A DNA stretch of 64,000 bases from Polyangia bacterium (GTDB lineage: Bacteria; Myxococcota_A; Polyangia; JAAYKL01). The first letter of the stretch is position 1. Every line of letters starts with the position of its first letter. The notes beneath the pieces are model-generated. The model did no database searches, had not been told where the DNA came from, and saw only the letters and a program-made list of their open reading frames with translations. The DNA is taken from contig JBNLED010000218.1 in assembly GCA_050304755.1 (NCBI GenBank), forward strand, positions 18,489 to 82,488, given 5' to 3'. The position numbers and the translations under genes are program-made. Shown here piece by piece: positions 21,456-64,000 of this stretch.

Positions 21456-21540
21456 TCAAACCTTTCCGAGGTCGCGTTGATAACGAAGACCCGAAGATAA
21501 TCCCGATGCCGGAAGGCGGTCAAGGGCTGCGATCGATCGC

Positions 21541-26689: not shown

Positions 26690-26696
26690 GGCGCTG
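26661..26696 (-). repeat. perfect 18-bp tandem duplication (CGGTTTCTCATGGCGCTG x2) spanning the start codon of giant protein 2
   Basis: Exact duplicate in the DNA. Encodes SAMRNR twice and creates two in-frame ATGs. Confidence 0.9.
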
Positions 26697-30007: not shown

Positions 30008-30026
30008 ACCGAGCCGCTGATCCGAG

Positions 30027-41370: not shown

Positions 41371-42192
41371 ATGATGAGAGCAAGCCGCCGTTCGGTCATA
41401 TCGGTCCTGGCGCTGATGATGTTGAGCCCCGTACCGGCGTCGTCGGAACCCCTCCCCGGGACGTTCGACGACAACCGCGCCGCCGCCCGGATTCGGGAGA
41501 TCGCCGACGCGTTCTATCCGAACTACGACGCGGGGCTGTGCCCCTATTACGGCCGGATCTGGAAGGATGAGTACGCGACGAAGCAGACCTTCGGGGATAC
41601 CGGAACGACGGTCTGGAGACACTACACCGAGGCCCTGGCGGCCGCGGGGCTCTCCCCGGAGCGGCTAGACTGCACCCTATACGCCAAGGAGATCCTCAAG
41701 GCGGGGCTCCACCGGCGGGACTACCGGCGGCTCTGGCGGGAGCACCACAAGATATGGAAGGATGACGGGTTCTCGGGCTGGAGCGTCGGGTACCTCCTCA
41801 CCGAGAAGTTCGGCTGGCGGGCCTACGCCGTCATCGATCCGGAGGCGCCGGACTACGCCTACTACACGAGCTTCTTCGAGAACCGGAACGAATACCCGGT
41901 GTGGCGGCAGCCCAACATCCCCATCGCGGGGTACTTCATCGCGGGCAGGGACGACTCGGCCATCGAGGCGCTGCTCCGCCGACATCCCTTCGGCTGGGGC
42001 TTCAGCGAGGGGGGGATCCACACCTGGATCACCCAGGGGACGGACCTCAGGGAGTGTCACTTCGACAGCGGCCCCTCGAGGCGCTACGACGCCGACAAGC
42101 CCTACCGCCTGCTGGAGTCCACCCGCTTCATCCGCTTCAACGACTACAACGTCCACCTGGTGGTCTTCCCCCCGGAAGCCGATCCGCAGTGA
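41371..42192 (+). CDS. secreted hypothetical protein (Trp/Tyr-rich; conserved-looking Cys, His, Asp could form a papain/transglutaminase-like triad)
   Basis: AGGAGG RBS. Signal SVISVLALMMLSPVPASS. No recognisable family. Confidence 0.6.
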   Translation: MMRASRRSVISVLALMMLSPVPASSEPLPGTFDDNRAAARIREIADAFYPNYDAGLCPYYGRIWKDEYATKQTFGDTGTTVWRHYTEALAAAGLSPERLDCTLYAKEILKAGLHRRDYRRLWREHHKIWKDDGFSGWSVGYLLTEKFGWRAYAVIDPEAPDYAYYTSFFENRNEYPVWRQPNIPIAGYFIAGRDDSAIEALLRRHPFGWGFSEGGIHTWITQGTDLRECHFDSGPSRRYDADKPYRLLESTRFIRFNDYNVHLVVFPPEADPQ

Positions 42193-42229
42193 CCGAACCG
42201 CCCCTGTCGTAAAGAAATCCCCATCAATA
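42186..42229 (+). repeat. 44-bp direct repeat copy 1 (GCAGTGACCGAACCGCCCCTGTCGTAAAGAAATCCCCATCAATA), covers the stop codon of 41371..42192
   Basis: Second copy at 43611..43654 with 1 mismatch. Brackets the transposase and its REP array. Confidence 0.8.
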
Positions 42230-42565
42230 CGGATGGGGACGGGGGAATGCCCCGTGCCTCGAGGACGGCGCCTTTGTCGTCTCCGGTCAGGCGCATCCGG
42301 GGGACATCTTCGGTCGTGGCGAGCCCGGGGAGACGGTGCTCTATGCCGACAGCTTTCCCGGCGAGCCGGGGATCCTGATGCATTTTTCGCTGAGTACCGT
42401 AACGACGGTACCCTGTCAGGGGAGAGAGGACACCCGTTCAGAGCGGCGAAAACGCAGTGGCGGCCCGGCCGGCTTTTCAGGGTCAAAACGGGTTGACGAA
42501 AAGCGAGGGACACCTGGAACGCAGGCGGCGCCAGCGACCGTGATCAGGTTACAGCAGTTGACTTA

Positions 42566-43291
42566 TCACTTCTTGGAGACCCCGGCGTCCGGATCCCCTC
42601 GGGAACAGGGGAGGACCGACAAGCCGTCAGTTTCAATTGTGGCGCCCAGAGGCGTCTCGCCCCGTTCCGATGGTCGGTCGTCGATCAGGCCGTTCTTCCT
42701 GAGATACTCGTCGCAGAGCTCGCGGTACCGCTTCTGTCTTTCTGCAGCGCTCTTTCCGAGGGAGAGGTATTCCCGCGGCATCGTGAGCATCCCAGTGAAC
42801 CACGACTTCTTGCCGTTGGCGTAGAACTGGTACGTGGAGTAGGCGTAGCGCGACGGATGGCTCACCATCCCGGCGCGGACGGGATTGGCGTCACCGTAGA
42901 ACATCACCTCGAGCAGCCTCCCCTTGGCATCGATCTCTTTTGTTTTGGGGCGGTCATAGGCCACCTTGCCCTGTCTTCGGTGTCGGCGGTTGTATCCGGC
43001 GCCGAACCGAGAATGGGCGTTTCGCATCCAGTTGCCGAAGGCCTTCAGGCAATCCTCGAGGGGGTGATTGGCGTAGTCGAGCTGTCCGGTCTCATGGGGG
43101 TGGTTGCTCATGATGCAGAAGGAGAAGAAGCGCACGAACTGCAGTATACCGGGGGTCAGGGTTTTTTGGAGGCTGGCCAGGTAGGCGTTTTTGTCCTCGC
43201 TGGATTCGAGGACCCTCTCGCGATTATGTCCCCGCCACATCTTGTGAAAGATGCCGGTGGTACGGATGGTATCGCGTCGGGCCCGTCTCAT
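42566..43291 (-). CDS. IS200/IS605-family (RayT-like) HuH Y1 transposase
   Basis: HPH (HuH) motif in CIMSNHPHETGQ, C-terminal Tyr region YAYSTYQFY, ~240 aa. The annotated ORF's N-terminal 96 aa merely translate the REP array (IGGTEVP repeats) and were trimmed. Confidence 0.7.
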   Translation of the reverse strand: MRRARRDTIRTTGIFHKMWRGHNRERVLESSEDKNAYLASLQKTLTPGILQFVRFFSFCIMSNHPHETGQLDYANHPLEDCLKAFGNWMRNAHSRFGAGYNRRHRRQGKVAYDRPKTKEIDAKGRLLEVMFYGDANPVRAGMVSHPSRYAYSTYQFYANGKKSWFTGMLTMPREYLSLGKSAAERQKRYRELCDEYLRKNGLIDDRPSERGETPLGATIETDGLSVLPCSRGDPDAGVSKK

Positions 43292-43380
43292 GCGGAGGAT
43301 GAGGAGCAAGAAGCCTGCCAAAAGTCGATTCGTGACATTACAGAGAGTTAGCCGATAAATCGCTGAAAAGGGCGGCGACG

Positions 43381-43607
43381 AGAACAGTGCTACACCGCCA
43401 GAGGGCCAATCCGTCGCCACCCTTGGGACCTCCGTCCCTCCGATCTTCTCCAACCCTGCTCCGATCTCTGGGACCTCCGTCCCTCCGATTTCCGATCTTC
43501 GATCTCTTGGGACCTCCGTCCCTCCGATCTCGATCTCTTGGGGACCTCCGTCCCTCCAACCCTCCTCAACCCTCCTCAACCCTCCGGCCTCCGTCCCTCT
43601 CCGATCT
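43381..43607 (+). repeat. REP-like palindromic unit array (4x TTGGGACCTCCGTCCCTCCGATCT plus degenerate copies)
   Basis: GGGAC-CTCC-GTCCC is an imperfect palindrome (hairpin). Lies immediately 5' of the Y1 transposase and is the reverse complement of the 40925..41200 array core. Confidence 0.7.
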
Positions 43608-43610
43608 CTC

Positions 43611-43654
43611 GCAGTGACCGAACCGCCCCTGTCGTAAAGAAATTCCCATCAATA
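43611..43654 (+). repeat. 44-bp direct repeat copy 2
   Basis: See 42186..42229. Confidence 0.8.
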
Positions 43655-45249: not shown

Positions 45250-45618
45250 GTGATTTACCCCGAATCCCAGAAGTGTACATTCTACACGCCGTTCCTGGCG
45301 ATGACGGGGCTGATGGGGGTTCTGTCCTGCGGATGGCGTCAGGGATCGGAATCACAAGACGCCGCCAACGGACGCCTCCGGAGCACCCCCGTCGCCGTCA
45401 CCGGCGCCGTCCTCCCTGTGGAGGAGGAGCCCCCCTTCGTCGACAGCGTCGCCGTCGGGATGGACACGGGGGGCAGGTTCCTGTGCTCTTTCGAGCCGGT
45501 CATGTGGTCCGCGCCCCCCGGCCCCCGCCGAGCCTTCCGCTTTACTGATGCGATTGCCGTCGCGCCCAAGCAGAGCCCCCCGGCGCCCCCTCACTCATTG
45601 ATGCAGCAAAGGATCTGA
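45250..45618 (+). CDS. possible small lipoprotein
   Basis: LMGVLSCGW lipobox-like. Overlaps antisense ORFs; weak support. Confidence 0.2.
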   Translation: MIYPESQKCTFYTPFLAMTGLMGVLSCGWRQGSESQDAANGRLRSTPVAVTGAVLPVEEEPPFVDSVAVGMDTGGRFLCSFEPVMWSAPPGPRRAFRFTDAIAVAPKQSPPAPPHSLMQQRI

Positions 45619-45671
45619 ACAATGACAGGAAGGGGGCCAAGCCCCGCCTTCCGGAGTGAAAGGGGAAATAT

Positions 45672-46301
45672 ATGAATAACTCCAAGAACAAGCTGCTGGC
45701 GTGCCTCGCCGGCGCGACCCTAACCGTGTCGTCCGGGGGGACGGAGGCGGCACAGAACAGTCTGACCGAGGTGCCGGAGGAGCTTATCGGCGGCGGCGAC
45801 ACCGACGGAGATCTCCTGCGGGATCGCGAGTGGGCGGCCTCGACCGTTCCCGCCATCAACCCGGATCTGGATATCCTGACCCACGCGCGCCGCTCACTCC
45901 CCTGGGAGAACCTGGAGACGCTCCTGATGATGGTGGCCGATGAAGCCCCTGAATCCCTCGAGGGCGTTGAGCGGATCTTGGTCGCGGCGCTGAAGGCGAG
46001 CGGCGGAATCACCCGAACGCGGGTGATCTCGGAGTGGGCGTTGTCCCTGTCCGATGCCAGACGGACCACCGTCGCCAGAGCGCTGGCCCATGACTTCTTC
46101 TGCCTCGGCGCCGACATCGCGGCGGCCCACCTCGCCGCCGATTCGAATCGCGAGGTCCGCCGAGCGGTGGTCGATATCGCCGGGGCGCGGATGAGAGAGT
46201 ATCCCGAGCACTACAGGGGGATCCTTCATGAATTGTCCGATGATCCGGACGCGCAGATCCGCGCCGCCGCCAGGGCGGTTCTGAGAACAACGTCACACTA
46301 A
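45672..46301 (+). CDS. secreted HEAT/PBS-lyase-like repeat protein
   Basis: Signal KLLACLAGATLTVSSGG. Repeated ..AR..A...L......R....A...A helical motifs (NREVRRAVVDIAGA, DAQIRAAAARAV). Confidence 0.65.
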   Translation: MNNSKNKLLACLAGATLTVSSGGTEAAQNSLTEVPEELIGGGDTDGDLLRDREWAASTVPAINPDLDILTHARRSLPWENLETLLMMVADEAPESLEGVERILVAALKASGGITRTRVISEWALSLSDARRTTVARALAHDFFCLGADIAAAHLAADSNREVRRAVVDIAGARMREYPEHYRGILHELSDDPDAQIRAAARAVLRTTSH

Positions 46302-46302
46302 T

Positions 46303-46583
46303 CCCGAGATCCCCAGCAGAGATCCTCACCCGAGTTATCCTTTATCTTTTAATTTAAAGGAGTTATAACTTTCTAGAAAACTTTTGGTCCTCTTCGTCCG
46401 ATAGGGAGGGCATGACACTGCCAAAACAAGGGCCGTGATGTAACGCCACACCGACAAAATCCGACCTGCGACCATCGGGAATAGGCTGATCGAGGGCTCG
46501 CAAAAGAATCGGCCGGGACTCAGAAAGGCGACGTCAACATTTCAACCCGGGTGGGGATTTTCTCAACCCGGGTGGGGATTTTC
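46303..46583 (+). mobile_element. MITE-like element copy A (degenerate left end, duplicated right TIR AACCCGGGTGGGGATTTT)
   Basis: Shares ~100 bp left and ~90 bp right blocks with copy B, including the GGTCCTCTTCGTCCGATAGGGAGGGCATGACACTGCCAAAACAA core. Confidence 0.6.
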
Positions 46584-46630
46584 TGATAGTGAATATATAG
46601 GATGTTACGCATTATCGGGAGAATGCTACT

Positions 46631-48052
46631 TTGAATCCCAAATTGTTTTGCCGTTTGAGCACGGGCGGCGGTGGGCCTTATAACGCCTTAGTCGGTTTCC
46701 CGTGTTGGGCAGTCGCAGTCCTGTCGGGACTCACGGCGCTGCTCATGTGCTGCTCCGGCGCACCGGGCGATCGAAGAACCGCCACTCCTTCGGGGACTGT
46801 GACTGCCGATACCGTAGTCGACGCTCCCTGGAATGTCCCGAGCACACGCAGCGAATCGTCGTCATCGGTTTCACAGGTCACCAATCGCTGTCGCTGCGAA
46901 AGCCGGGCTTCGTTGCTCGGATGGGTCGGCTCCACCGCGGTCGTCAAGCGCGAGGACTGCTTCATACAGACGACGGACAATTCCCTCGATTGCGAGACAC
47001 GTTCCGTTCTGGCAGTGCGCAGCGTTGACGGGCGAACTGTGGTCGAGACGATAAGCGACGTACCGAGCGAGTTGATGCCCACCCCGAAAGCCGATACACT
47101 TGAGCTCGCGCGGCATCGAATTCTTTTGATTGAAGCATCGGATACACTATATTCATCCGTACGGCGTTACCTGCTGCGGGTCATCCCGGTCGACGGGGCC
47201 GCTGAGCTGCTCGACGAGAGTGTTGCGATCGCGCAGGATAGACGAACTTATCATTGCGGCAACGTCTCCCTATCCCAAACCCTGTCGGTCAGCGGCGACG
47301 GGGTGCATTTGGAGCACGATCCGGAGTTCGGCTGGGCACCGTCAGTGGACGGCGCGACGATCTTGGCGGTGACCGCATCGGAATCCGCCGGAGACCCGGG
47401 GGACGGGGATCCGGAGTTCGACTACCTCATGGCAGCGCCGGCCGAGCACACACCGAAGAGTATACTGCGCGCAAAATCGACGCCGTGCCGGGTCGTAACA
47501 CAATGGGGTTTCGACGGCAGCGAGGACGCGCATCCCGATGAGACCTTCTTGGGCTGGGACGGCGATCGAGCGGTGTTTGAGCCGTGGGGCGGGCATCCGT
47601 ACACGCTCGATCCGAGGCACAAATGTGCTCGCCGTCACGCAACCGGAACCGTTGATCCAAACCCGGGCCAACCGGTTTCGGGCAACTACGACATGTATCC
47701 GGAAAAGGAACGTGAGCGGGACGACCCGCAGCTGGTGCTGGTAACCGATGCCGACCCCGCGGTCCTTGAGAAGCAAATTGAAATGCTCATGGAAGCCTCT
47801 CCCACCGAGGCGCCCCCTGTGCCCACACACCTTCTCTTATTGTTGGTGTCTCCGCATCGGGTCCAAACAGCAGCGGCATGGACACAGTTGATGGGATACG
47901 TTTCCGGAGAAGCATCGAACCTGTCCGCCGCCTATCCTAGGCTCGCCGGTGCCTGTCGTTCGTTGAGCGGCAAGTCACTTCTCATCAATTTGTCGTTCGG
48001 CGATGCCGACGGTTTCGAAAACCATGTGATCGCGTTGCCGGAAGAGCAATAG
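46631..48052 (+). CDS. hypothetical lipoprotein (473 aa), lower GC than flanks, directly flanked by two MITE-like copies
   Basis: Signal AVAVLSGLTALLMCCSG. No family recognised. GC about 58% versus about 68% nearby. Confidence 0.6.
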   Translation: MNPKLFCRLSTGGGGPYNALVGFPCWAVAVLSGLTALLMCCSGAPGDRRTATPSGTVTADTVVDAPWNVPSTRSESSSSVSQVTNRCRCESRASLLGWVGSTAVVKREDCFIQTTDNSLDCETRSVLAVRSVDGRTVVETISDVPSELMPTPKADTLELARHRILLIEASDTLYSSVRRYLLRVIPVDGAAELLDESVAIAQDRRTYHCGNVSLSQTLSVSGDGVHLEHDPEFGWAPSVDGATILAVTASESAGDPGDGDPEFDYLMAAPAEHTPKSILRAKSTPCRVVTQWGFDGSEDAHPDETFLGWDGDRAVFEPWGGHPYTLDPRHKCARRHATGTVDPNPGQPVSGNYDMYPEKERERDDPQLVLVTDADPAVLEKQIEMLMEASPTEAPPVPTHLLLLLVSPHRVQTAAAWTQLMGYVSGEASNLSAAYPRLAGACRSLSGKSLLINLSFGDADGFENHVIALPEEQ

Positions 48053-48054
48053 GA

Positions 48055-48374
48055 GATCCCCACCCGGGTTATCCTTTATCTTTTGATTTCTAGGAGATCC
48101 AACTTTCTTGGAAACCTTTGGTCCTCTCCGTCCGATAAGGGAGGGCATGACACTGCCAAAACAAAACAGAAGATTTTTCTCTTCGCATTCCCGCGATGCC
48201 AACGGAGACGTTTGTCCACCGCGCAACTCCCGCCAGGATAGCGTGTCGTTTTGGCGACAAATCATCCGAAATCCGACCGGCGACCATCGGGTATAGGCTG
48301 ATCGAGAGCTCGCAAAAGAATCGGCTAGGACGCAGAATGGCGACGTCAACATTTTAACCCGGGTGGGGATTTTT
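48055..48374 (+). mobile_element. MITE-like element copy B (complete; TIRs GATCCCCACCCGGGTT / AACCCGGGTGGGGAT)
   Basis: 16-bp terminal inverted repeats read directly from the sequence. ~320 bp with no ORF. Confidence 0.65.
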
Positions 48375-48390
48375 CGGTATTTTTCGGATT

Positions 48391-48573
48391 TTAGCGGGGC
48401 GAACGAGCACACCGAAACCCGAGGCCGTTGTTCCAGAACGTGGGCAAATCCCAGTGTGAGAACCTAACAAGTTCGTCGGAATAAATAGTGTTCCATCCGC
48501 CGCCATGCAGCATCGGATAGACGCCCTCGTCATCCCAATGCGAGATCGACCATTCTGACACGTTTCCAGTCAT
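48391..48573 (-). pseudogene. C-terminal fragment of a formylglycine-generating-enzyme (FGE-sulfatase/SUMF1-domain) gene
   Basis: GNVSEWSISHWD...LHGGGWNT...GFRCARSP matches the FGE-domain C-terminus (GNVWEW...RGGSW...GFRc). Upstream frames are broken. GC about 52%. Confidence 0.6.
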
Positions 48574-48874
48574 GTCGCACAGACCGCTTCATGGCGGCCA
48601 CCAGACGCCGGCGTTGCTCCACGTAGGCCGTCGCCTGGGAGCACGACTGCTCCGCCTTGACCCGGTAGGGATTGGGCTCTCATGAACAGTCCAGTTCAGC
48701 TCCTGATGTCAAAGGCTCCGTGCGACCACTGCTGACGCACCTTGCCGCGTTTTTCCTTGCCGATCTATTGGGATTTCAAGGTATAACCTTCGTGGTCTAG
48801 CGCCTTCATTTCTTGTAAGGGATGCTCTCGCTGGGGAAATTATCCTTTGAAAAAACTCGAACAGAAGGATTTCA

Positions 48875-52011: not shown

Positions 52012-53571
52012 ATGAGGAAAACAGTGTTGGTGACAGGGGTTATCGTGTGCGGTTTGTGCGTGCTGCAGTGCGACGTGCCGGTGGATGTCGAGTTTACCCC
52101 GACAGTCGGATTGGTGGGAGCAGGTGACGACCCGATGGTGGTCAATCTCGACGAAGGGTGCGAGCCCGGGGAGACGCTGGTTTATCCCATACGCGACCGA
52201 AAAGGGATCACCCAGGTGACGACCGGGCTGGACGGTGAGTTGCTCGCCAAGGCGGACGACTGCCGAACCTACACATTTGACGGCGAAGCCTGGCGACCCA
52301 ACTATTCGCTGATATATCGGTATGCCCAGCCGGGGATTATCCCGAATGGGGCGGAGGGGGACTATCCCCGAGGGAACAGGTGTGTCGACATTTGGTACCC
52401 GGAAGGATTGGGGGAAATCCTCGAGTTAAACGTTGCCGGGATTGGAGTTTACAACCGAAACTATATCAACACCCTGGATTTCGGGCTTTTCGCTGTGGAC
52501 GAGGGTTGGAGCAGCGACGATGCAAAGTTTACTTACGGAACGGCGGTTTGGGGCACGTCCCGGTACGCGTATCTGGAAACACGCATAAGGCTTTATTATC
52601 CGCCGGAATTTTTCTCTGTGGAAGGCAATGATGTGACAAAGAGTGATGAGTTCGTTTCCGAACGGTTCTTCAAGGCGGGGGGAGGGATTTCTCTGTACGA
52701 GTATGCAGATGACGAGGGAGCTCATATGGATAGGGGCTTGACCTATGTACCGGATATCCCCTTCATGGATGTCTTCGGCAACTCGATCGCCGACTTTTTT
52801 GCCGTTGGCAACGAGCTCCAAACGGCATGTCCCCGAGTGACAGGGAATGTGTACCACTGCAACGACAGCGCCTGCGAGCTGGAGCTCAACGTTTCCGGAG
52901 TAACCCTCAAATCGATCCACGGCGTCTCGGGGGACAACCTCTTCGTGGTGGGCGGCAACGATGAGCGCAGCACCAACGGTGTGATCTTTCAACGCAGAAA
53001 GGGGAAATGGATTCGATACGACCTTCCGACGGACATCCCCTTGAACAAAGTCTGGGCGGCCGATTCGAAAACGGTGTACGCGGTGGGGGGCGCCTACGAC
53101 AAGGACGGCGCGCCGAGCAGTGTCGCCCTGAGGCTTTCGGGCGGCGAATGGGAGATTCTGGATGTCGACTCGACGCGCCCCCTCTATGACGTGTTCGGTC
53201 TGTCCGGCGACGATGTCCACATCGTCGGGGAGGAGGGGTTCTTTCATTACGGCACCGCGCGGCAGAACGACTGGCCCGCCATCCAGGCCGATGAGCTCTG
53301 CGATCTGTACAATAAGATGTACGACGGGTGTCACTTCGCTGAGGTCGGCGACCCATTGGGAGTCCAAACCTGTGAGACCGCGCTCCTGGACGTTTTCGCC
53401 GAGGGCGGCGATTGCGCGGATTCGGCTTTCTCGCTGCTTGACTGTATGTTGCACCAGTCGTGTGACGAGGCCCTGAAATTCAGCGAGGATCCGACGAACC
53501 CGGACGCCGCGTGCGCAACCGAATACGCCGCCGTGGACTGTCCGTCATTCCCTCCTGAGATCTCACAGTAA
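52012..53571 (+). CDS. secreted/lipoprotein hypothetical (519 aa) downstream of the sigma/anti-sigma pair
   Basis: Signal VIVCGLCVLQC. Cys-rich C-terminal tail. Propeller-like repeats (VYAVGGAYD, VHIVGEEGF). Confidence 0.7.
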   Translation: MRKTVLVTGVIVCGLCVLQCDVPVDVEFTPTVGLVGAGDDPMVVNLDEGCEPGETLVYPIRDRKGITQVTTGLDGELLAKADDCRTYTFDGEAWRPNYSLIYRYAQPGIIPNGAEGDYPRGNRCVDIWYPEGLGEILELNVAGIGVYNRNYINTLDFGLFAVDEGWSSDDAKFTYGTAVWGTSRYAYLETRIRLYYPPEFFSVEGNDVTKSDEFVSERFFKAGGGISLYEYADDEGAHMDRGLTYVPDIPFMDVFGNSIADFFAVGNELQTACPRVTGNVYHCNDSACELELNVSGVTLKSIHGVSGDNLFVVGGNDERSTNGVIFQRRKGKWIRYDLPTDIPLNKVWAADSKTVYAVGGAYDKDGAPSSVALRLSGGEWEILDVDSTRPLYDVFGLSGDDVHIVGEEGFFHYGTARQNDWPAIQADELCDLYNKMYDGCHFAEVGDPLGVQTCETALLDVFAEGGDCADSAFSLLDCMLHQSCDEALKFSEDPTNPDAACATEYAAVDCPSFPPEISQ

Positions 53572-53670
53572 GATCCCCACGAGTAAGATCCCCACCGGGT
53601 TGTCATTCAGAATCCCCACCCGTGTAAGATCCCCACCCGGGGTATCCTTTATCTTTAAGAGATCCCTCAC
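53569..53670 (+). repeat. cluster of four tandem MITE left-end fragments (GATCCCCAC...) ending with GGGGTATCCTTTATCTTT
   Basis: Starts exactly at the stop codon of 52012..53571. Matches the left terminus of the MITE-like family. Confidence 0.55.
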
Positions 53671-53796
53671 CCTATCAGCGTCTGTGTTCGATGTCTGGAG
53701 CGAGAGTTTGGGGTAGGGTTCAGGCTTGCGATGGAACAACTGGGGTTGAGAAATGTTACTACATACGAAGGTATTTTAGCCACAAGGAGGTGTCAA

Positions 53797-54234
53797 ATGC
53801 CACGGAAGATGCTTCGAAAAGTGACGAGCGTGGGTGTCGCCGCCATTCTGTGCAGCCTCGCGCTTGTCGGGTGTACCGGAGAGAAGGTCTACAAGATGAA
53901 AGCCACTGCCGCATTGCCGGCGGCCGAAGGGTCGGTGTCCGCGTGGGAGGGCAGCATGGACGAGACAGTGGTCGAAGTCGATGCGCAGTATCTCACCCCG
54001 ACGGAAGAGACCAAGGATCCGCTCTACTACACCGCCTGGGCCAAGAACGGTAACACTATCACTCGCCTTGGCAACCTGAAGCTGGAGGGAGATCGCTTCG
54101 GCAGGCTTGTGTCATCCACCCACATGACGAATTTTGAGGTCATGGTCACTGCCGAGGAGAAGCCCGTCCTGAAGAAACCCCAGTCGCTGCCGATCCTCAC
54201 GTCCACGACCATCTACAGTTGGGATTTGACCTGA
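53797..54234 (+). CDS. small lipoprotein (145 aa)
   Basis: AAGGAGG RBS. MPRKMLRKVTSVGVAAILCSLALVGCTG lipoprotein signal. Confidence 0.6.
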   Translation: MPRKMLRKVTSVGVAAILCSLALVGCTGEKVYKMKATAALPAAEGSVSAWEGSMDETVVEVDAQYLTPTEETKDPLYYTAWAKNGNTITRLGNLKLEGDRFGRLVSSTHMTNFEVMVTAEEKPVLKKPQSLPILTSTTIYSWDLT

Positions 54235-54382
54235 AATAGAAGCACGGAACTCAGGACAAACATTGGAACTTGACCGCGATACCTGTCCGCACGGGTAGGA
54301 CACCACGAGGAGCACGAAGACAATTTTCAATTTTGTCCACATCTTCTCGAGGGCGCTGCCCCTCACCTGTTTTCCGACGTCG

Positions 54383-55135
54383 TCAACTTTCGAGGGAAGC
54401 ACTCGAATTTGAAGACGCCCCGTACAAGACGGGCATTCTTCCTTTCCATTTTTGCCACAAGTCATCGTCGCTGATCAGTTCTGTCATAAAATGCGCGACG
54501 TTGATGCGGCTTATCTTACCGGCATTAAAAATCGCACTGCGCGTTGGGGAAACAAACGCCTCATATTCAGACACCGTATCTTCATCGATCAACCCGTCGG
54601 GTCGAACCGCGCTCCATTCAATCATACTATCGTTCGGGCCTATTTGTGTGCGCAAATAGTCTGCTGCCGATTCATTGTCCTTATGCGGAGGCACCAGCAG
54701 TCGAATCAATCCGACCACGAAGCGTTGGGCGGCGGAAATGCGCTCATCTTCATCCTTATTGACAACACCCGAGGAGCTCATCAGCACAAACTTCACGCGG
54801 TTTCCTACCGAAGAAGTTTTTCGAATCGCTTCGCAAAACCGACGTTCCGCCTCAGCAACAAGTCTTCGCGGATGACCGTACATCCCTTTAAACGAAATGT
54901 TGTGCCCCAAACAGGATGCCACGACATCACACCCCTGCACGTACGATTCTATCTCCGCATCGCTTAGATCCGATACACTGCCGCCGATTGTCGTAAGCTT
55001 CTCTCGATTTTTGAGAAACTCCGGCAGTTTTTCCGGCGAACGAACGACTATCGTCACCTCATGGCCGCGACTGAGCAACATATCGGCAACATGACGACCC
55101 GTGGCGCCGCTGGCGCCGAGCAGTACAATTTTCAT
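54383..55135 (-). CDS. NAD(P)H-binding atypical SDR / NmrA-like oxidoreductase, low-GC (about 50%) gene
   Basis: GGAGG RBS then MKIVLLGASGATGRHV Rossmann motif. GC clearly below the window average. Confidence 0.8.
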   Translation of the reverse strand: MKIVLLGASGATGRHVADMLLSRGHEVTIVVRSPEKLPEFLKNREKLTTIGGSVSDLSDAEIESYVQGCDVVASCLGHNISFKGMYGHPRRLVAEAERRFCEAIRKTSSVGNRVKFVLMSSSGVVNKDEDERISAAQRFVVGLIRLLVPPHKDNESAADYLRTQIGPNDSMIEWSAVRPDGLIDEDTVSEYEAFVSPTRSAIFNAGKISRINVAHFMTELISDDDLWQKWKGRMPVLYGASSNSSASLES

Positions 55136-55525
55136 TTGACTCTCCTCCAATTGTCTACTCCGGAAATACCGGAGACGGCGGCCTCATGATTTCAATCGAA
55201 AACGCACTCGTATAGCCAAAGGGCCCCGTTCTGTTAGGTAGATAACCCGCCAAACTGTAAATGCAACGTTAGTCGCCTGTCGGAAAAAGGTTCGTCAATC
55301 GTGGGTGACTGTGCCCTTTCGGCCCGCGATCTCGACCGCCAATCGGGCGTCGGGGCGGAACACGCCTCTCGCTCCCTTGGCGGCCACGCTCATCTGCGTC
55401 TCGACGTCCCGTCCCGGCGTCGCTTCCGCATCCAGCTCGACCTCCAGTTCTATGATGATTTCTCCGTCGCCTCAGGAGCCACCGAAGCCGTTTAGGCGAA
55501 GGCGGGCCTCGTCGACGTCGACAAG

Positions 55526-56179
55526 TCAACCCGGGTGGGGATTTTTGCAGATCGACACGGTGGCAGCCCCGGAGAGGCCGCAGATCCCCGAGGTCGAGGG
55601 CTCAGTGTCCCCCACGTAGGAGCATACCCCGTCCCGGTGGTCGTAGCTCAGCTCGCCGGTCTCCGGATCCCAGTTGGCGGTGGCCGAGCCCCCCCACTGG
55701 CCGGCGTCCTCGTTGTAGCGCATGAGGATGCTGGTGTGCCCGACGTACTCCCGCGCGAACCCGTAGGCGATCCGCTCTCCCACGGCCGCCGCCATCTCCG
55801 CCTCGGTCAGGGACAGGTCGCTGTTGGCGCAGGCGCCGTGCTCGTCGAGCACCACCTCCGGATCGCCCTTCTCCACTACGACACTCCATTCGCAGAAATC
55901 GCACGGGATCGAGGGATCCGCCACCGCGGTGAGCGGATACCGCACGCGGCATACGTCGGCGGGATCGTCGCTGTTGGTCAGGATGTACAGATCCTCGTAT
56001 CCATCATACGCGATTGTCGCCTGGCTGGTCTCGGGAACGGCGCCCGACTCCGAATCGCCCTCCGGACCGGCATCGGCCGTATCGCCCGGCGCGATGTCGT
56101 TTGTCTCGTCGGCGTCGTCGCAGCCGCTCGCCGCAAAGAGCGTGCAGATGATCATGTGTAAGAGCGCATTCCGATTCAT
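55526..56179 (-). CDS. acidic lipoprotein hypothetical
   Basis: MNRNALLHMIICTLFAASGCDD lipobox. Confidence 0.6.
   Translation of the reverse strand: MNRNALLHMIICTLFAASGCDDADETNDIAPGDTADAGPEGDSESGAVPETSQATIAYDGYEDLYILTNSDDPADVCRVRYPLTAVADPSIPCDFCEWSVVVEKGDPEVVLDEHGACANSDLSLTEAEMAAAVGERIAYGFAREYVGHTSILMRYNEDAGQWGGSATANWDPETGELSYDHRDGVCSYVGDTEPSTSGICGLSGAATVSICKNPHPG
55529..55548 (+). repeat. solo MITE right-terminus fragment (CAACCCGGGTGGGGATTTTT)
   Basis: Identical to the right TIR of copies A and B. Abuts the 3' end of the 55526..56179 gene. Confidence 0.45.
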
Positions 56180-56222
56180 TGTAGTCTCCCTCTTTTCTCG
56201 ACGCATCTGAAGAGCGCCGGAT

Positions 56223-56531
56223 TTACCATCCCTCCGTCAGGGCGTATAGGTCGTCGATCAGGATGGTGTGCCCCAGCACGGTCTGGAGGGTCTTGGTGAC
56301 GGTCTGGTTTTCGAGGACGACCTCCTTCTCAAGGATCCCCACGGCGATATCCGGACCGGTCTCCTCGTCGCTGCTGCTACTGTCCGCGTCAGAACCGGTG
56401 TCGGGGAAGCCGTCCATGGTCGAGGTATCGCGTGCAACATATGACCCGGCCGGTCCGTTGCTCGTGTCCGAGCAGGAGAAGAACAAAACGCACAGACCGG
56501 GTAGTAGTCGAACCGCGCTCGAGTGGGTCAT
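56223..56531 (-). CDS. small lipoprotein hypothetical
   Basis: MTHSSAVRLLPGLCVLFFSCSD lipobox. ~100 aa. Confidence 0.45.
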   Translation of the reverse strand: MTHSSAVRLLPGLCVLFFSCSDTSNGPAGSYVARDTSTMDGFPDTGSDADSSSSDEETGPDIAVGILEKEVVLENQTVTKTLQTVLGHTILIDDLYALTEGW

Positions 56532-57178
56532 GAGAAACCGCCTCCTTTGGGGTGTATTGGGATGGAAGTAACCGATTTGATTTGTCTGATAGTCCATTCC
56601 AAAGGTGGAGATGTGCGAAGAATGTGCCAATGCCTGGACGACACATATCTATAATAATTACGAGATATAATAGATTGTGCCAAAAACAGGATTGTGCCAC
56701 CTCGACCCTCCCCGCGGCCCGATCGACCCTTCCCGCGGCCCGATCGACCTCGCCCGATCTCCGATGTCTTTTTACCTTCAGGGAAAATTATTCACGCCGT
56801 CCACTCCGGCCGCCGCCTTTCGCTTGAGCGAATAATACGACTCCCGTAGAAGCTCAATGGTGATGTGGTGAAAGAGCGCGGTGAACCCCCGCTGTCGCGA
56901 CTTCGAATACCGACTTCGAATACCGACGGGAATGGACTCACCAGATGGCGAAGTCAACGCACCAGTTTATCCTTTTGATATATAATATTGCGGGAGTCTT
57001 GCTACTATCATAACCTTTGGGGAAAAGAACAGTCGGTAAAAGTGAATGAGGTTTGCGGTGGAAGGTCAGATTTTTGGGGATTCAGAAGAAAGCGGAGATG
57101 ATCGGATCTTGGATTTGAACGCTCATGTGCAAACGAAGAGGGCGCTCATTTGTCGTACCCGTACAGCGGGGGGGCCTC

Positions 57179-58980: not shown

Positions 58981-59975
58981 TTACTCGCCGAGGATGAACG
59001 CGCGTCTCCCATCGACGAAGTTACGGATCTCGTCCACGCGGCTCAGGTATTCGGAATTGTCGGCCCGTTTCCTGCCGTCGGCCATCAGATCCGGTGCGGC
59101 GCGGCAGAGGAGATTATCGATGCGGCCGTCGATGAACTCCCTGTTGAACGTCGTGGAGAGGACGTGTTCCACCAACTCGCAGAACCGATCCTGGTATTCG
59201 GGGATGTCGTACAACCTCGTCATCAGGTGATTGCAGAAGCCGGGACAGATCCCTTCATCAAGGGACGCGTCGGTGATAATCGCTTCATCGAGAACGCCGT
59301 TCTCCTCTGACCAGAGATGGCCGAACGTCAACTCGAGGCCCCAGGGGAAGACCACCCATCTGTCATCCGGAGACTCGGGGTCCCTGTAGAGGTAGTAGTT
59401 CTTCTTGATGTGATCGTGGTTCTGAATGACGGCCATGACGGCCATATGGACGAGATACTCGTTGACATCCAATACCTCATTGATGGCGACCTCGAAATCG
59501 TCTTCGGGAAGCTGAAGGGGTTCTCGATGAGGTCGTCATGTGGGATATCGCCCTTTTTATGGTTGTAGATGCAATCGTAGGTGTCGAGAGAATCCACCGG
59601 CGTCATATCACCCCCCGGCGACCAGCAACTGCTGTCGGGATCGGCCTCGTACATGCTGCCGGTCTCGTTGTTCAACCCCCTCACTCTCAGAAAGTCCCCG
59701 CCGATTCGCTCCAGATGCCACATGACGCCGTAATACTGCCCGTTGATTCTCAAGTGGACCATCTCGGCCTGCGGCGTAGGAATCCACGACGCGTTTCGGA
59801 ACAGCTCCAGACCGAGGTAGTTGCGCAGCATGGACTTGTCGTTCCACTCGGCCCGCAGAATAAGGCGATCGTGTGTATCCGCTAAGGCGCTATTGTGATA
59901 TCCAAGCCGCCTTGATCTGTGGCTTGGTGATACCGCATCCCCCGTCGTTGCCGTGCTTTTGGTTGCGCGGAACAC
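58981..59975 (-). pseudogene. CotH-family (spore-coat-protein-H-like kinase fold) gene with a frameshift near 59470-59530
   Basis: Upstream frame VHLRINGQYYGVMWHLERIGGDFL plus downstream frame KNYYLYRDPESPDDRWVVFPWGLELTFG are both CotH hallmarks. They sit in different frames with ~145 nt overlap. Confidence 0.6.
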
Positions 59976-60681: not shown

Positions 60682-60785
60682 GCTACCTTCTCTCGCGGGT
60701 GGTTTCGTTTTATGTACTTGTATAGCACGTTATCGAGGTCAGTCAGCTCTACCCCGCCCCATGGATTGAGGCTATACCCGGGTTA

Positions 60786-60920
60786 TCCTTTATCTTTTGG
60801 AGATCCCCACCCAGGTTATCCTTTATCTTTTAATTTCAAGGAGATCCAACTTTATTGGAAACCTTTGGTCCTCTTCGTCCGATAGGGAGGGCATGACACT
60901 GCCAAAACAAGTATTGCCAA
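60786..60920 (+). mobile_element. MITE-like element copy C (duplicated left end plus conserved core, right half missing)
   Basis: CCCGGGTTATCCTTTATCTTTT appears twice, then ...GGTCCTCTTCGTCCGATAGGGAGGGCATGACACTGCCAAAACAA, identical to copies A and B. No right TIR follows. Confidence 0.55.
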
Positions 60921-61233
60921 ACACCACGTACCTCGTCACACGACGGTGCACTCAAAGAGTAAGAGTAGGGACACCAGCGCCATACTGATTTTTTTTTCAA
61001 CCAGCGGTCTCTGGTGCCCCCTCTTCCGAACCCAGTGTGCACCTTTCGTTGTGCACTGGCTCTCCATAAATCAGAATTATTGCATGAAACCGTGCAGCGA
61101 CTGCTTGATTGCCGCGGGGATTCGACATTATGATGTCCAAGTGCTGGATCTACGCTGACCGAGGTCGCGAGGACGTACGCCGCAAGCTGCGTGGAAGTGC
61201 GCGATTGTATTAGCGTTCAAACTGTTCGGTGCT

Positions 61234-61707
61234 CTATAAAGACAGGCACGCCGCTTCATCTTGCGTCCACATGTCGAGCAGATCGCAATAGAAGAGATAC
61301 CCGGCGTCCGCGCAGCCTGCTGCAGACCACTCGGCATCGTCCATCTCATAGAGACACTCCCCTCGGAAGGCGTTGTAGCAGGCGGCTGAACCGTCCATGG
61401 TCCACACGCAGGCTCCGGCGGGCTCGTCCAGGCATTTGTAGTCGGTCCAGGTGCCGTCCTCGCAGTCGACGAATCCCGCTGTTTCGCACCGCTCCTCCAC
61501 CCGTTCTCCAAACCGAAAATCGCAGACCCATTGGGTCGCGTCGACGCAGACGTAGTCGGAGTTGTGCTCGTCCATCATATCACTCCAGATGAGGCACCCG
61601 GAAATGACGTCCGTCTTTTTGTTTTCGACAAAATAGGCATCGTCCGTGCACGCCGCCGCGAGCGTCGATGCCAAAAAGAGGAGAATAGATATGGCCTTGT
61701 TGAGCAT
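61234..61707 (-). CDS. Cys-rich acidic small lipoprotein
   Basis: MLNKAISILLFLASTLAAAC lipobox, 16 Cys in 157 aa. Confidence 0.5.
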   Translation of the reverse strand: MLNKAISILLFLASTLAAACTDDAYFVENKKTDVISGCLIWSDMMDEHNSDYVCVDATQWVCDFRFGERVEERCETAGFVDCEDGTWTDYKCLDEPAGACVWTMDGSAACYNAFRGECLYEMDDAEWSAAGCADAGYLFYCDLLDMWTQDEAACLSL

Positions 61708-61885
61708 GGTTACCTTCCCGTGGACCCGGTTATCCTATTGGGAAACCAGGGCTACGGCAAAGAAAAAATAGGATGGTCCGCTGGGACTTCCAAAGAGAAC
61801 CGTAGACGCGCCGGGAGATCTATCGCATAAATGGGGGAGCTTATCGAATGGCTCTGTTTCGCAACCACGGAGGGGCATGGGGTCC

Positions 61886-63220
61886 ATGAATCGAAGCAAA
61901 TGGCTAACGGTGCAGGCGCTCGGCATTCTATTCGCGGCAGTGGTTTGTTGTCTGCCAGAAGCCGGGGAGGCCGGAAACAGTCGCGCCTTCTTCCTCGGCG
62001 ACGAAGCCGCGATGACGGGCGGAGCCGGCGTGGCGGTCTCGCGGGACTCCGGTTCCATCTGGTACAATCCCGCGGGGCTGGGCGGGCTGCACTTCGGCCG
62101 CATGGAGCTCACCGCCACCGCTTACAAGCTCAAGATAAGAAGGATCGAGGATTTTATCGTCGCGGATCTGCCCGGCGGCACCTTGCACAAAGACATGAGC
62201 GTCAACTCCTTCGGCGCGGTCCCCACCTCCGTGGTGTTCGTGAGAAACCTCAACGAAGACATCAGCTACGGCCTGGCGATATATCAGACCGGCAACCTGT
62301 CTCAATCGGTTCGTATCGAGATTGACGAATCGTTGTCGGTGGGGCGCTGGGGGCTCGGCATCGAGGACCACGAGGTGGCCGTTACCTATCATATCGGCCC
62401 GGCCATCGGATGGCAGATAACACCCCGGCTCAGGGTCGGCGCCTCGCTTTTCGTCATCTACGATTCGTATACACAGAATCAGCAGGAGTTCTTGTCGCTC
62501 TCGGTCTCGGATTCGTCGGGACAAACCGATTATTCGTATCTCTGGAGCCTCTACTACGATGCCGCATCAATCGGATTCATGATTCAGGCGGGGCTCCAGT
62601 GGGAGTTTGTCGAGAACTGGCACGCGGCCCTGGTGCTGCGCTCCCCGACCATGAACTTTCACTACAGCGAAAATGAGATTGTGTACGACCTCACCATTGA
62701 CGAAGATTTCGAAGACGAATCATTCGGGGACCAGGAAGCGATCAGCGAGTGGGATTTCGATTCGGGCCCGGACATGGAGACGCAAATCGGCCTGGCGTAT
62801 AAAACTGATAAATTCTGGATCGCGGCAGAGGCCGCCTTTCGTCCACCGGCCAATGAGTACGAGGACTGGCTCTGGAACGCCAGCCTCGGAAGCCGGTTTC
62901 AAGTGACGAAAACCATTAATATGGGCGCGGGCGTCTTCACCGACCGGTCAAAGGGGCTGGAGCCGACCTACTTTCTGGAGGAGAGCACGGATCGGTACGG
63001 TATAAGCCTTGGCCTCGAGAACCGTACCCCGGTCACCGTCAAGAAGGAGGGGGGCGATACCTCTCTCGAATGGACCACTACCCTGGCCGTGATCTACTCG
63101 TTCGAAATCGGTCAGGTGGGATCCCTGGCGTTCGATTCGGAGAGCTTTGGAGAGGTGGTCCTGACCGATGTCCTGTTTCATCAGGTGTTCCTCCACCTGG
63201 GAACGGCGCTCTATTTCTAA
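61886..63220 (+). CDS. FadL/OMPP1/TodX-family outer-membrane hydrophobic-compound transporter
   Basis: N-terminal AAMTGGAGVA...SIWYNPAGL hallmark. Ends in aromatic F (beta-barrel C-terminal signature). Confidence 0.75.
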   Translation: MNRSKWLTVQALGILFAAVVCCLPEAGEAGNSRAFFLGDEAAMTGGAGVAVSRDSGSIWYNPAGLGGLHFGRMELTATAYKLKIRRIEDFIVADLPGGTLHKDMSVNSFGAVPTSVVFVRNLNEDISYGLAIYQTGNLSQSVRIEIDESLSVGRWGLGIEDHEVAVTYHIGPAIGWQITPRLRVGASLFVIYDSYTQNQQEFLSLSVSDSSGQTDYSYLWSLYYDAASIGFMIQAGLQWEFVENWHAALVLRSPTMNFHYSENEIVYDLTIDEDFEDESFGDQEAISEWDFDSGPDMETQIGLAYKTDKFWIAAEAAFRPPANEYEDWLWNASLGSRFQVTKTINMGAGVFTDRSKGLEPTYFLEESTDRYGISLGLENRTPVTVKKEGGDTSLEWTTTLAVIYSFEIGQVGSLAFDSESFGEVVLTDVLFHQVFLHLGTALYF

Positions 63221-63624
63221 CAAGACCCCCTGAAAACCGCGTGGTCGGTCATTTGGCAGACATGTGACGGTCATTTGGCGGATCGGGCGCGAACGTTACG
63301 CGCCCCGCGAGCAACCCTCCGAGCAACCCTCACCAGGCAACGGATAAATAGTATAAAAACGGTATGTTGTAATGTGTTGCAATATGAACTTTACGACAGA
63401 CGGCCTTTTCATTGGTTTTCTCTAGCGTTCATGGAAGCCTATTACGAAACAGACCAGAAAGACCCTGCCCTTCTCGGACACATTGCCCAAATAGTTTCCA
63501 TTTCAGGATGCTTTACTTCAAAAAGGTCTGTAACCGACTGTAATGACTATATCTATCCATTGGGTGGTGACGGTTACACAGCCTTCTCGGCGGAGACGCC
63601 GCCCTCTATTCAATGCTGTAGACG

Positions 63625-64000
63625 TCAGTCGAGAAACTCGTCGCGAAGGATGATGTCGCCGAACTGGGAGGGGACCCACCACAGGTCGCTGATGGCGTAC
63701 CATCGCACGAGACTGTCTCGTTCGAGGCTGCTGTCCGGTCGGCCGCCGTCGTCGTCGTCCACGCCGATGTCGAACCCGATGGTGCGGTTGTCCTCCGGTG
63801 TGACGCTCAGATACTCCCATTTGATGGCGATCTCCAGCGAGTAACCGGGGCCGTCGAGCTTGTGCCAGGCCACGCTGATGCGGGGGACTTCATCGCTGTA
63901 ATCGCTCCGTCTGCAGTGGGCCGAGTCGTCGCCGTAGGTGAACTGACAGTGGTCGTCGAAAGCATCCAGCGCGGTGCCGCCGTTGTGATTTCCGTCAAAG
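63625..64000 (-). CDS. 3' end of a secreted protein (carbohydrate-binding/DOMON-like domain?), 5' partial beyond window
   Basis: The minus frame is open to the window edge (...FDGNHNGGTALDAFDDHCQF...VAWHKLDGPGYSLEIAIKWEYL...GFDIGVDDDD). Domain guess is low confidence. Confidence 0.5.
   Translation of the reverse strand, partial: FDGNHNGGTALDAFDDHCQFTYGDDSAHCRRSDYSDEVPRISVAWHKLDGPGYSLEIAIKWEYLSVTPEDNRTIGFDIGVDDDDGGRPDSSLERDSLVRWYAISDLWWVPSQFGDIILRDEFLD

Follow-up and report, generated by a model that had tools for sequence, protein, structure and literature searches.

Empty MITE-like repeats around an apparent near-orphan gene, and gene-carrying copies nearby, in a decaying region of a Polyangia chromosome

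In the 64,000-nucleotide stretch of Polyangia DNA analyzed here (the window), a gene of 473 codons (ORF473) is flanked by two direct copies, A and B, of a short repeat with terminal inverted repeats (TIRs), and the family to which these copies belong consists of both MITEs and cassette-like (MIC-like) members. This arrangement is probably best explained by A and B being old, independently inserted non-autonomous TIR (MITE) copies that flank a resident, lineage-restricted orphan gene within an atypical, decaying accessory region. By this account one MITE copy would have entered each of the intergenic spaces on either side of ORF473, and all members would have been moved in trans by a TIR-recognizing (DDE-type) transposase whose gene lies elsewhere in the genome. 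The FGE-sulfatase gene fragment that lies next to B would have been truncated at its 5' side by an unrelated deletion or rearrangement and not by the adjacent MITE.

Copy A (46319-46582, plus strand) is preceded by a degenerate extra left-terminus motif (GAGATCCCCAGCA, 46306..46318, plus strand), which has been recognized by reading of the sequence and by motif search and which starts 4 nt past the TAA stop of a 209-aa HEAT-like gene. The left module of A (46319..46430) carries the inverted repeat GAGATCCTCACCCGAGTTA, with two mismatches to the family consensus, and is separated by a short copy-specific middle, delimited by alignments (46431..46446), from a right module (46447..46561) that ends in the terminal repeat AACCCGGGTGGGGATTTT. 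This right terminus is followed by its own 21-nt tandem duplicate (46563..46582; Tandem Repeats Finder: period 21, 2.0 copies, 100% matches). Copy B (48053-48373, plus strand) has the same orientation, and the first base of its left module (48053..48164) comes directly after the TAG stop of ORF473. The 86-nt middle of B (48165..48250) has no similarity elsewhere, and the right module (48251..48373) contains, at 48355-48370, a perfect 16-nt inverted repeat of 48056-48071, the pair being 100% complementary and the same termini recurring in A and in the further copies C and D. A 10-nt tandem (GGATTTTTC, 2.8 copies, 48367..48392, plus strand; all parts of A and B are likewise given on this strand) reaches from the right terminus of B to the stop codon of the FGE fragment.

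Throughout the family, a conserved left module of ~112 nt and a conserved right module of ~115-125 nt enclose a variable interior, and the termini form a ~19-bp inverted repeat (RRARATCCCCACCCGGGTT; TIR length 16-19 bp). At least four members (A, B, C and D) have been located between 46.3 and 65.3 kb, i.e., within 19 kb, and the terminal motif occurs seven times in the 64-kb window by motif search, against 0.06 occurrences expected by chance; no copy has been found in a further ~65 kb of this genome, outside the 19-kb zone. The clustering of all four members is unusual for a dispersed MITE family and speaks against our preferred explanation. In blastn comparisons of A with B, the left modules match at E = 1e-35 and the right modules at E = 5e-40, and copies across the family have been mapped at E = 1e-35 to 1e-46. 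Global alignment of these two copies gives 89.2% identity for the left and 92.9% for the right modules, while the left module of A is 90.1% identical to that of D; for B and D the left modules are 95.5% and the right modules ~94% identical (94.2%; 93.6% over 125 nt). With 264 bp (A) and 321 bp (B), both copies fall within the size range of MITEs (about 100-500 bp), they encode nothing, the only ORFs that overlap them being short (52-65 aa), and their GC content is about 0.50 vs. 0.63 in the host. The initial annotation had regarded the repeats as MITEs in direct orientation, and they are indeed genuine MITE-like elements.

Family copies are located at the very 3' ends of genes, with stop codons at 46299, 48050 and 53569 lying 4, 0 and 0 nt from left termini, and the stop codon is sometimes supplied by the element itself. 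An Rfam search over 45.5-49.5 kb has returned no credible RNA family match, and scans for promoters and terminators have not exceeded the shuffled expectation. MITEs, MICs and solo IRs are recognized derivatives of insertion sequences (PMC3129680). In the ISfinder/ISsaga usage of the term (PMC3129680), A and B resemble MITEs in being short, TIR-bounded, non-coding, multicopy, intergenic at gene ends and AT-richer than the host. They differ in that no target-site duplication of at least 3 nt is seen at A, B or C, no parent IS or transposase is known, the members are clustered in the 19-kb zone, and conservation is concentrated in two long subterminal modules whose inner boundary is sharp.

The gene between the two copies, ORF473 (46631..48052, plus strand), starts with TTG, has a GGGAG-like ribosome-binding site 8 nt upstream, and encodes 12 Cys and a hydrophobic N-terminal segment. 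Its codon-position GC (0.63/0.51/0.675) is coding-like, its frame is free of stops vs. 8-14 in the other five frames, and its overall GC of 0.604 is close to the earlier estimate of about 58%. The protein had been described as belonging to no recognizable family, which holds in Pfam, NCBIfam, PHROGs, PADLOC and PDB. Only ORF473 itself has come back from a word-indexed search of 5.8 billion proteins, and an exhaustive HMMER search of 1.8 billion representatives has yielded one genuine homologue, a 77-aa protein that matches its C-terminus and is encoded in a different genomic context without the repeat. The two proteins share the same final residue, which marks the C-terminus of ORF473 as native. 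A 2017-aa repeat protein has been dismissed as a spurious homologue, its score being inflated by seven weak repeats of ~31 bits each. As judged from these searches, ORF473 appears to be a near-orphan gene. For the full protein, AlphaFold2 has produced an unusable model (pLDDT 35), and a moderate model of the C-terminal domain built with the single homologue (pLDDT 66) does not match any fold significantly (best hit: E = 0.06, TM 0.31). The designation as a lipoprotein has not been borne out: the hydrophobic N-terminal segment is present, but the sequence (…LTALLMCCSG…) does not match the lipobox [LVI][ASTVI][GAS]C of the PROSITE PS51257-type rule, which two neighboring genes, at 53797 and 55526, do pass.

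Since two direct copies bracket a single gene with both outer ends present, A-ORF473-B could be read as a composite MITE-pair transposon that moved as a unit by using A's left end and B's right end, brought in ORF473 horizontally and landed next to or in an FGE gene. As experiments with TIMEs have shown, intervening DNA can be mobilized by a pair of MITEs (PMC4133298); the segment is lower in GC than the upstream chromosome, and ORF473 is not found beside the HEAT-like gene in either of two distant relatives, the only ones found, which have been identified through homologues of that 209-aa protein (~38% protein identity) and in which the gene order is rearranged. We regard a composite origin as unlikely. 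A systematic search allowing 0-9 nt of slack at the boundaries has revealed no target-site duplication of at least 3 nt for A, B, C or the whole A-B unit; the flanks of D show TTTTG, which overlaps, however, with the conserved T-run of the terminus, and 12% of random pairings yield matches of at least 5 nt. As no target-site duplication is identifiable for any copy, we infer transposition from the architecture and do not consider it demonstrated. Further points against the composite are the mismatched outer inverted repeat of A, the orientation of the FGE remnant, whose 3' end faces the unit while its broken end faces away, and the lower GC3, which is common to the entire 46-65 kb zone and not confined to the unit. 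As to movement as a unit, ORF473 has no second copy and three assemblies show the same arrangement. Because A and B are not sisters (B-D about 95% vs. A-B 89-93%), the target-site duplication is lacking and ORF473 is single-copy, a composite transposon is less likely than two separate insertions on either side of a gene that was already resident.

The TIME composites are similar to A-ORF473-B in that two direct non-autonomous copies surround a DNA segment, and they possess 38-bp Tn3-type inverted repeats and 5-6-bp duplications and have been caught transposing (PMC4133298); the repeats around ORF473, in contrast, are unrelated to theirs in sequence, show no duplication and form arms that are not sisters, with no second copy of the unit. 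The geometry is one that a transposase could exploit as a composite, but nothing indicates that it has moved as one. Of the initial comparison with a composite transposon, the structural resemblance is therefore what can be retained, given that B is nearer to D than to A, that no duplication exists and that ORF473 is single. The term orphan cargo is also misleading, as the true cargo of D and C lies inside one element, flanked by its left and right modules, whereas ORF473 is located outside both copies, in the space that separates A's right end from B's left end.

The FGE pseudogene remnant (48391..48603, minus strand; stop codon 48391-48393) comprises the C-terminal ~30% of the FGE-sulfatase domain, and the decayed fragment proposed in the initial annotation has been confirmed by profile search, in which 48391-48573 (minus strand) scores 28.8 bits (cut-off 23.3) against positions 175-255 of the 255 in PF03781. 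An in-frame TGA is located at 48589-48591 and the FGE homology runs on across it; further upstream, no FGE signal has been detected in any of the three minus-strand frames, in line with the earlier remark that an intact upstream frame is lacking, and the 64-kb window contains no FGE paralogue. The complete domain of ~255 positions in one open frame, as required of a functional FGE-sulfatase, is thus not found. Compared with FGE-sulfatase/SUMF1 proteins (PF03781), the remnant still shows the signature of the C-terminus (GNVxEW ... GGxW ... GFRCA) but lacks ~70% of the domain and carries a stop inside the homologous stretch, i.e., it is a pseudogene fragment. The FGE-sulfatase fold is also common to PorK/GldK. 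The GC of the remnant is 0.55, vs. about 52% in the earlier estimate. The intact stop codon of the remnant is followed, 18 nt downstream, by the right terminus of B, and the missing N-terminal two-thirds are expected on the opposite side from B, beyond 48.6 kb; at the truncation point there is no repeat terminus, and the sequence is unique. Since the truncated 5' end is on the far side from B, copy B did not break the FGE gene, and the earlier suggestion that a MITE insertion destroyed it finds no support, as B resides at the intact 3' end.

Copies C and D differ from A and B in their contents. Copy C (53627..55546, plus strand) consists of 1.9 kb between a left family end of ~30 nt and a right family end of ~33 nt and is preceded by an array of three degenerate left-terminus motifs (53569..53626, plus strand), the first of which gives the TAA stop of a 519-aa gene. 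Enclosed in C are a lipoprotein gene (53797-54234, plus strand) and a gene for an NAD(P)-binding protein (NAD_binding_10; 54383-55150, minus strand). The right terminus of C forms the last six codons and the stop of a native 226-aa lipoprotein gene (55526-56206, minus strand), and homologues of this lipoprotein stop where the right terminus of C starts. A 21-bp in-frame insertion at this terminus within a longer gene has been considered and rejected, as the homologues end there and the stretch is unlike the next operon gene. Copy D (plus strand) begins with a left module at 60799-60911, directly behind a truncated left-terminus fragment (60778..60798, plus strand), and extends from 60799 to 64000 and on past the window end. 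The corresponding right module is known from a second assembly, where it is found on JBNLBU010000512.1 (window-equivalent 65146-65268), 4.2 kb downstream of the left module and in the same orientation. The cargo of D comprises genes for a Cys-rich secreted protein (61234-61707, minus strand), a FadL/TodX-like outer-membrane protein (61877-63220, plus strand) and a CBM9 protein (from 63628, minus strand).

No transposase has been found in the cargo of D (about 4.2 kb) or of C (1.9 kb), and both copies thus show what characterizes a MIC, namely IS-type ends around passenger genes without a transposase. Because C and D enclose genes in this manner, the family includes MIC-like members in addition to MITEs. 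Known MICs include MIC231 of Bacillus cereus and the qnrS2 MIC of Aeromonas (PMC5444012); D and C are similar to them in that MITE ends enclose 4.2 and 1.9 kb of passenger genes, and different in that their passengers encode envelope or secreted proteins and not resistance determinants or peptidases.

A, B and D have the same sharp inner edge of the left module, where an invariant 27-mer (ending in …AGGGAGGGCATGACACTGCCAAAACAA) is followed by unrelated interiors of 27 nt in A, 86 nt in B and 4.2 kb in D; the middle of A has no similarity to the middle of B or to the cargo of D. Simple deletion derivatives do not predict such an identical edge, which is a point against the preferred explanation. 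The edge with its unrelated interiors, the position of all members within 19 kb, the lack of target-site duplications and the repeated duplication of termini (motif search, Tandem Repeats Finder) would be in keeping with modules that act as boundaries of a site-specific cassette-exchange system (integron-like or served by another recombinase), in which a fixed junction serves for the exchange of interiors and the clustered copies make up one array. We consider such a system very improbable, as the scanned ORFs include no integrase or recombinase and perfect terminal inverted repeats are a hallmark of transposase substrates. An attC site is defined by the R'' core RYYYAAC and the R' core GTTRRRY within an imperfect palindrome of 57-141 bp, with an IntI integrase nearby. 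The element ends, which read GGGTTATCC and TTTTAACCC, do not fit these cores in either orientation, the elements (264-321 bp) are far longer than attC sites, and in single-strand folding of A and B neither strand folds significantly (z = -1.2 and -1.9). Cores, size and the lack of an integrase among the scanned ORFs all depart from those of an integron gene cassette. It is a long shot that the modules are not simple transposon ends but a cargo-capture platform, in which interiors are exchanged directly after the invariant 27-mer by a recombination mechanism with no recognizable integrase nearby, so that genes for envelope and secreted proteins are shuttled by versions that are either loaded (D, possibly C) or empty (A, B); if this were true, the uncultured lineage would possess a cassette system of a new kind.

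Under the preferred reading of independently inserted MITEs, a transposase would act from elsewhere in the genome. An autonomous copy or cognate transposase with the same inverted repeats has been found neither in the window nor in 19 kb of another contig, and this failure to find either one tells against that reading. For a parent element, one scan of genome collections has remained without matches. The 102 matches to the repeat from a second such scan have been discarded as chance, being single, taxonomically scattered and without extended similarity. Scans of metagenome and viral collections have given no match to the repeat, and BLAST against plasmids and phages has returned nothing relevant.

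A candidate enzyme of another type is encoded 3 kb upstream (42566-43291, minus strand), where a gene matches the profile NF047646 (E = 1.7e-7, profile positions 19-146 of 146), and the repeats might accordingly be viewed as REP/REPIN-type sequences serviced by this RAYT-like tyrosine transposase. REP elements likewise sit just past stop codons without target-site duplications, the RAYT-like gene has a hairpin repeat array of its own, and a short motif (CTCCGTCC...CCGAT) is common to the MITE left module and the RAYT-associated repeat. The match, however, scores far under the family cut-off (31 vs. 80 bits), and the repeats flanking the RAYT-like gene (GGGACCTCCGTCCC hairpins) are unlike the MITE termini, so that the family does not qualify as REP/REPIN. 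Moreover, a REP is a tenth as long as the MITE, which has classical terminal inverted repeats, the common motif is not enriched in the window, and two degenerate search patterns have been uninformative. A RAYT-serviced origin is therefore extremely unlikely.

The whole structure is set in a zone of distinct composition. From 46.6 kb on, GC3 drops to 0.55-0.77 vs. 0.81-0.90 upstream, which agrees with the atypical composition ascribed to the segment at the outset, and this step matches that in overall GC (0.58 in the zone vs. 0.65 upstream). The lower-GC3 zone contains at least four gene remnants, the FGE piece among them; the signs of its decay include a CotH gene split over two frames, an operon gene of ~560 aa reduced to a remnant, and a C-terminal GH9 remnant that adjoins copy D. 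Horizontal acquisition of the segment is possible, and the low GC could equally result from AT-biased decay in a pseudogene-rich zone.

The same arrangement has been encountered in two further assemblies, i.e., in three altogether. In GCA_050303475.1, a 17.9-kb contig runs from A through ORF473, B and the FGE remnant to C, with a homopolymer indel at 53071 as the only difference, and a contig of GCA_050299055.1 covers A and the start of ORF473 with one SNP over 45428-47752. Contigs break inside copy D, at window positions 60899 and 60875, which counts in favor of a multicopy repeat family, and those of one assembly break inside both copy D and the RAYT-like gene, as a mis-join across repeats in a metagenome-assembled genome might lead one to expect. 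Against the continuous contigs from the two other assemblies, we attach hardly any weight to such an artefact.

For the biology of this organism, the finding is an ordinary case of known mobile-element biology that reveals no new mechanism; it provides no link between FGE/sulfatase biology and the element and does not explain the function of ORF473. Its practical value lies mainly in annotation, concerning the pseudogene calls, the contig breaks induced by the repeats and the corrected lipoprotein label, and the sharp module boundary offers a modest lead. Beyond this, a previously undescribed family of non-autonomous elements has been recognized in an uncultured high-GC bacterium, in which empty MITEs and MIC-like members that carry genes occur next to one another and precisely at the 3' ends of genes. 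It is an example of elements that shape a decaying, plastic chromosomal region, in which they flank, and potentially mobilize, lineage-specific genes.

The repeat copies A (46319-46582) and B (48053-48373), both members of one terminal-inverted-repeat family, bracket in the same orientation a gene of 473 codons, ORF473 (46631-48052, plus strand). Before A lies the stop codon (46299-46301) of a 209-aa HEAT-like gene of native composition, and past B a short FGE-sulfatase-like fragment (48391-~48603, minus strand). A and B have in common a left module of ~112 nt and a right module of ~115-125 nt, conserved stretches inside each end of the element, for which blastn E-values of 1e-35 and 5e-40 and global-alignment identities of 89.2% and 92.9% have been obtained, respectively. 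The terminal inverted repeats of B are perfect over 16 nt, and the terminal motif CCCGGGTGGGGATTTT occurs seven times in the window versus 0.06 expected by chance. By blastn, alignment and motif count, the two direct repeat copies around a gene that the initial annotation had described are thus borne out far above chance.

Two further copies, C and D, widen the family. D starts at 60799, where its left module is complete and 95.5% identical to that of B; contig JBNLBU010000512.1 (GCA_050303475.1) reaches 1.8 kb past the window end, and on it a complete right module, oriented alike, has been found at window-equivalent 65146-65268, 93.6% identical to that of B over 125 nt. D is therefore a ~4.5-kb element with ends as in the short copies and ~4.2 kb of passenger genes inside, encoding a Cys-rich secreted protein, a FadL/TodX-like outer-membrane protein and a CBM9-domain protein; no transposase has been found in D. 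Inside C (53627-55546) lie genes for a lipoprotein and an NAD(P)-binding protein, and only ~30 nt at each end of C are common to the family. [quoted passage not shown] It has not been found in the genome, metagenome, viral, plasmid and phage collections searched. The inner edge of the left module is sharp and identical between copies despite unrelated interiors, and all copies are tightly clustered, two features that leave a cassette-exchange mechanism behind the family a small chance, although we regard it as quite improbable.

The left terminus of B begins at the base following the TAG of ORF473, A is located 4 nt past the TAA of the 209-aa gene, and at C, where there are several degenerate left-terminus motifs, the first contains the TAA of a 519-aa gene; the family insertions therefore lie at extreme 3' ends of genes. 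At the other end of C, the right terminus provides the final six codons and stop codon of a 226-aa lipoprotein gene (55526-56206, minus strand), and homologues of that lipoprotein stop just after '...ATVS'. Duplication or degeneration of termini is frequent (two per end in A, four or five in C, one truncated plus one full at D, a 10-nt tandem beside B), and no target-site duplication has been identifiable for the family copies. The 519-aa ORF (52012-53571) is whole in the window and is present as 372-aa and 165-aa ORFs in GCA_050303475.1; at 53071 a homopolymer reads AAAA in the window versus AAA in that assembly. The stretch 55283-55525 (minus strand) is coding-like (codon-position GC 0.72/0.47/0.74, one internal stop) and runs on in phase past the right terminus of C; its assignment to the lipoprotein family has been rejected, and it shows no match to the gene that follows in the operon.

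The comparison of A-ORF473-B to a composite transposon has held only as a resemblance in structure. Because both modules of B resemble those of D more than those of A, A and B appear from their sequences to be independent, fairly old family members, not a duplicated pair. No direct repeat flanking the A-B unit has been found, and ORF473 exists once only in the protein collections searched. The proven cargo of the family, as in the MIC-type D and C, lies between left and right modules within one element, whereas ORF473 lies between two elements, from the right end of A to the left end of B. Most economically, two separate insertions would have entered the intergenic DNA before and after ORF473, a resident gene. 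Since MITE pairs are able to mobilise the DNA between them (TIMEs, PMC4133298), the A-ORF473-B unit is potentially mobilisable.

ORF473 is a genuine gene, a near-orphan whose C-terminus is native. Its frame contains no stop across 473 codons (8-14 in each of the other five frames), its codon-position GC of 0.63/0.51/0.675 is coding-like, with the first ~300 nt atypical, and its TTG start is preceded at 8 nt by a GGGAG motif. No match has been found in Pfam, NCBIfam, PHROGs, PADLOC or PDB, and among 5.8 billion proteins only the self-match, so that profile, protein and PDB searches agree with the earlier statement that it has no recognisable family. Its sole genuine relative, found when 1.8 billion representatives were searched exhaustively with HMMER, is a 77-aa ORF with 56% identity to residues 401-473 and the same final residue; the 1.15-kb metagenome contig encoding it shows a weak match upstream in a different frame, and neither repeat element nor FGE fragment downstream. 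A 2017-aa HMMER match has been rejected as an artefact of seven weak repeats. The N-terminal segment is hydrophobic; the protein fails the lipobox rule, which two neighbouring genes pass, and the label 'lipoprotein' is therefore unsupported. Structure prediction gave no usable fold assignment, and as a best guess we infer a secreted or membrane-anchored envelope protein, as most neighbours encode.

The fragment next to B matches PF03781 at the C-terminal positions 175-255 of 255 only (28.8 bits versus a gathering score of 23.3) and contains an in-frame TGA at 48589-48591, which the alignment to FGE-fold proteins of the PDB crosses ('WWPP*SGLCDM' pairing with 'FSPNDFGLYDM'); the proposed decayed FGE gene is thereby confirmed. 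There is no further FGE signal in the three minus-strand frames of 48.6-49.5 kb and no FGE paralogue in the window. Here the second assembly is identical; the fragment is a genuine pseudogene remnant, beyond rescue by a sequencing error. That a MITE insertion destroyed the gene is contradicted by the position of B, 18 nt past the intact stop codon of the remnant; the 170 profile positions that it lacks would lie on the side away from B, and there the interval to the next gene is 284 nt of unique, non-repeated sequence.

This remnant is one of several in the zone. A CotH kinase gene (58981-59975, minus strand) is split over two frames, with PF08757 positions 33-110 and 168-321 in separate ORFs, and is probably a frameshifted pseudogene. 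Upstream of the lipoprotein gene of 226 aa, a 135-aa ORF (56226-56351, minus strand) is what remains of a ~560-aa gene, cut to ~125 nt; a different contig of this genome (locus L105, 6982-11754) carries an intact paralogue of the operon (560 aa, lipoprotein, 322 aa, arylsulfotransferase), and metagenome relatives have this operon, too. Just outside the window, a GH9 C-terminal remnant (PF00759 383-443 of 444; locus L108 224-469, window-equivalent 65305-65550) begins 37 nt past the right terminus of D, its 5' part missing locally. The GH9 case shows that a gene can be truncated just where a copy of the repeat family lies; no such coincidence is seen in the FGE case.

The upstream 46 kb consist of ordinary chromosomal genes, with neither transposase nor integrase; the 209-aa flanking gene has only relatives of ~38% identity, in a different gene order, so that they provide no empty site for comparison. 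Between 45-nt direct repeats (42185-42229 and 43610-43654, 44/45 identical), a 1.38-kb insert (42185-43654) holds a RAYT-like Y1 transposase gene (43291 to 42566, minus strand; NF047646, E = 1.7e-7, below cut-off) and tandem hairpin repeats GGGACCTCCGTCCC (43400-43600); another assembly's contig breaks inside this gene at 43009, which suggests that it is multicopy. Two tandem arylsulfotransferase (PF05935) paralogues at 28205-31781 have common DNA segments of 72-94% identity. At 21500-26850 (minus strand), two long ORFs of very high GC (71-73%) are densely filled with short-period repeats of the Gly/Pro type, and several LRR-repeat proteins are encoded nearby (18.2-19.3 kb and 35.1-40.9 kb). 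The long AT-rich intergenic region upstream of a DUF5122-like gene carries the tandem 21-mer TCGACCCTCCCCGCGGCCCGA (56702-56756, 2.6 copies) and a tandem 13-mer (56898-56927, 2.3 copies).

GC3 falls from 0.81-0.90 in genes before 46.3 kb to 0.55-0.77 between 46.6 kb and the window end, except for a native lipoprotein gene (0.83), and overall GC is 0.65 upstream versus 0.58 downstream. The compositional step (~46300 onward) is sharp and starts exactly at A. The low GC and GC3 fit horizontal acquisition as well as they fit AT-biased decay in an accessory region rich in pseudogenes. What the initial annotation observed has stood, as have the MITEs, the orphan gene and the decayed FGE gene of its interpretation; the composite transposon and the destruction of the FGE gene have not. 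The description that suits the locus best is a decaying accessory region with a cluster of a new MITE/MIC family, two independent copies of which would have bracketed the orphan ORF473 by chance; the FGE fragment beside B would be an unrelated neighbour.
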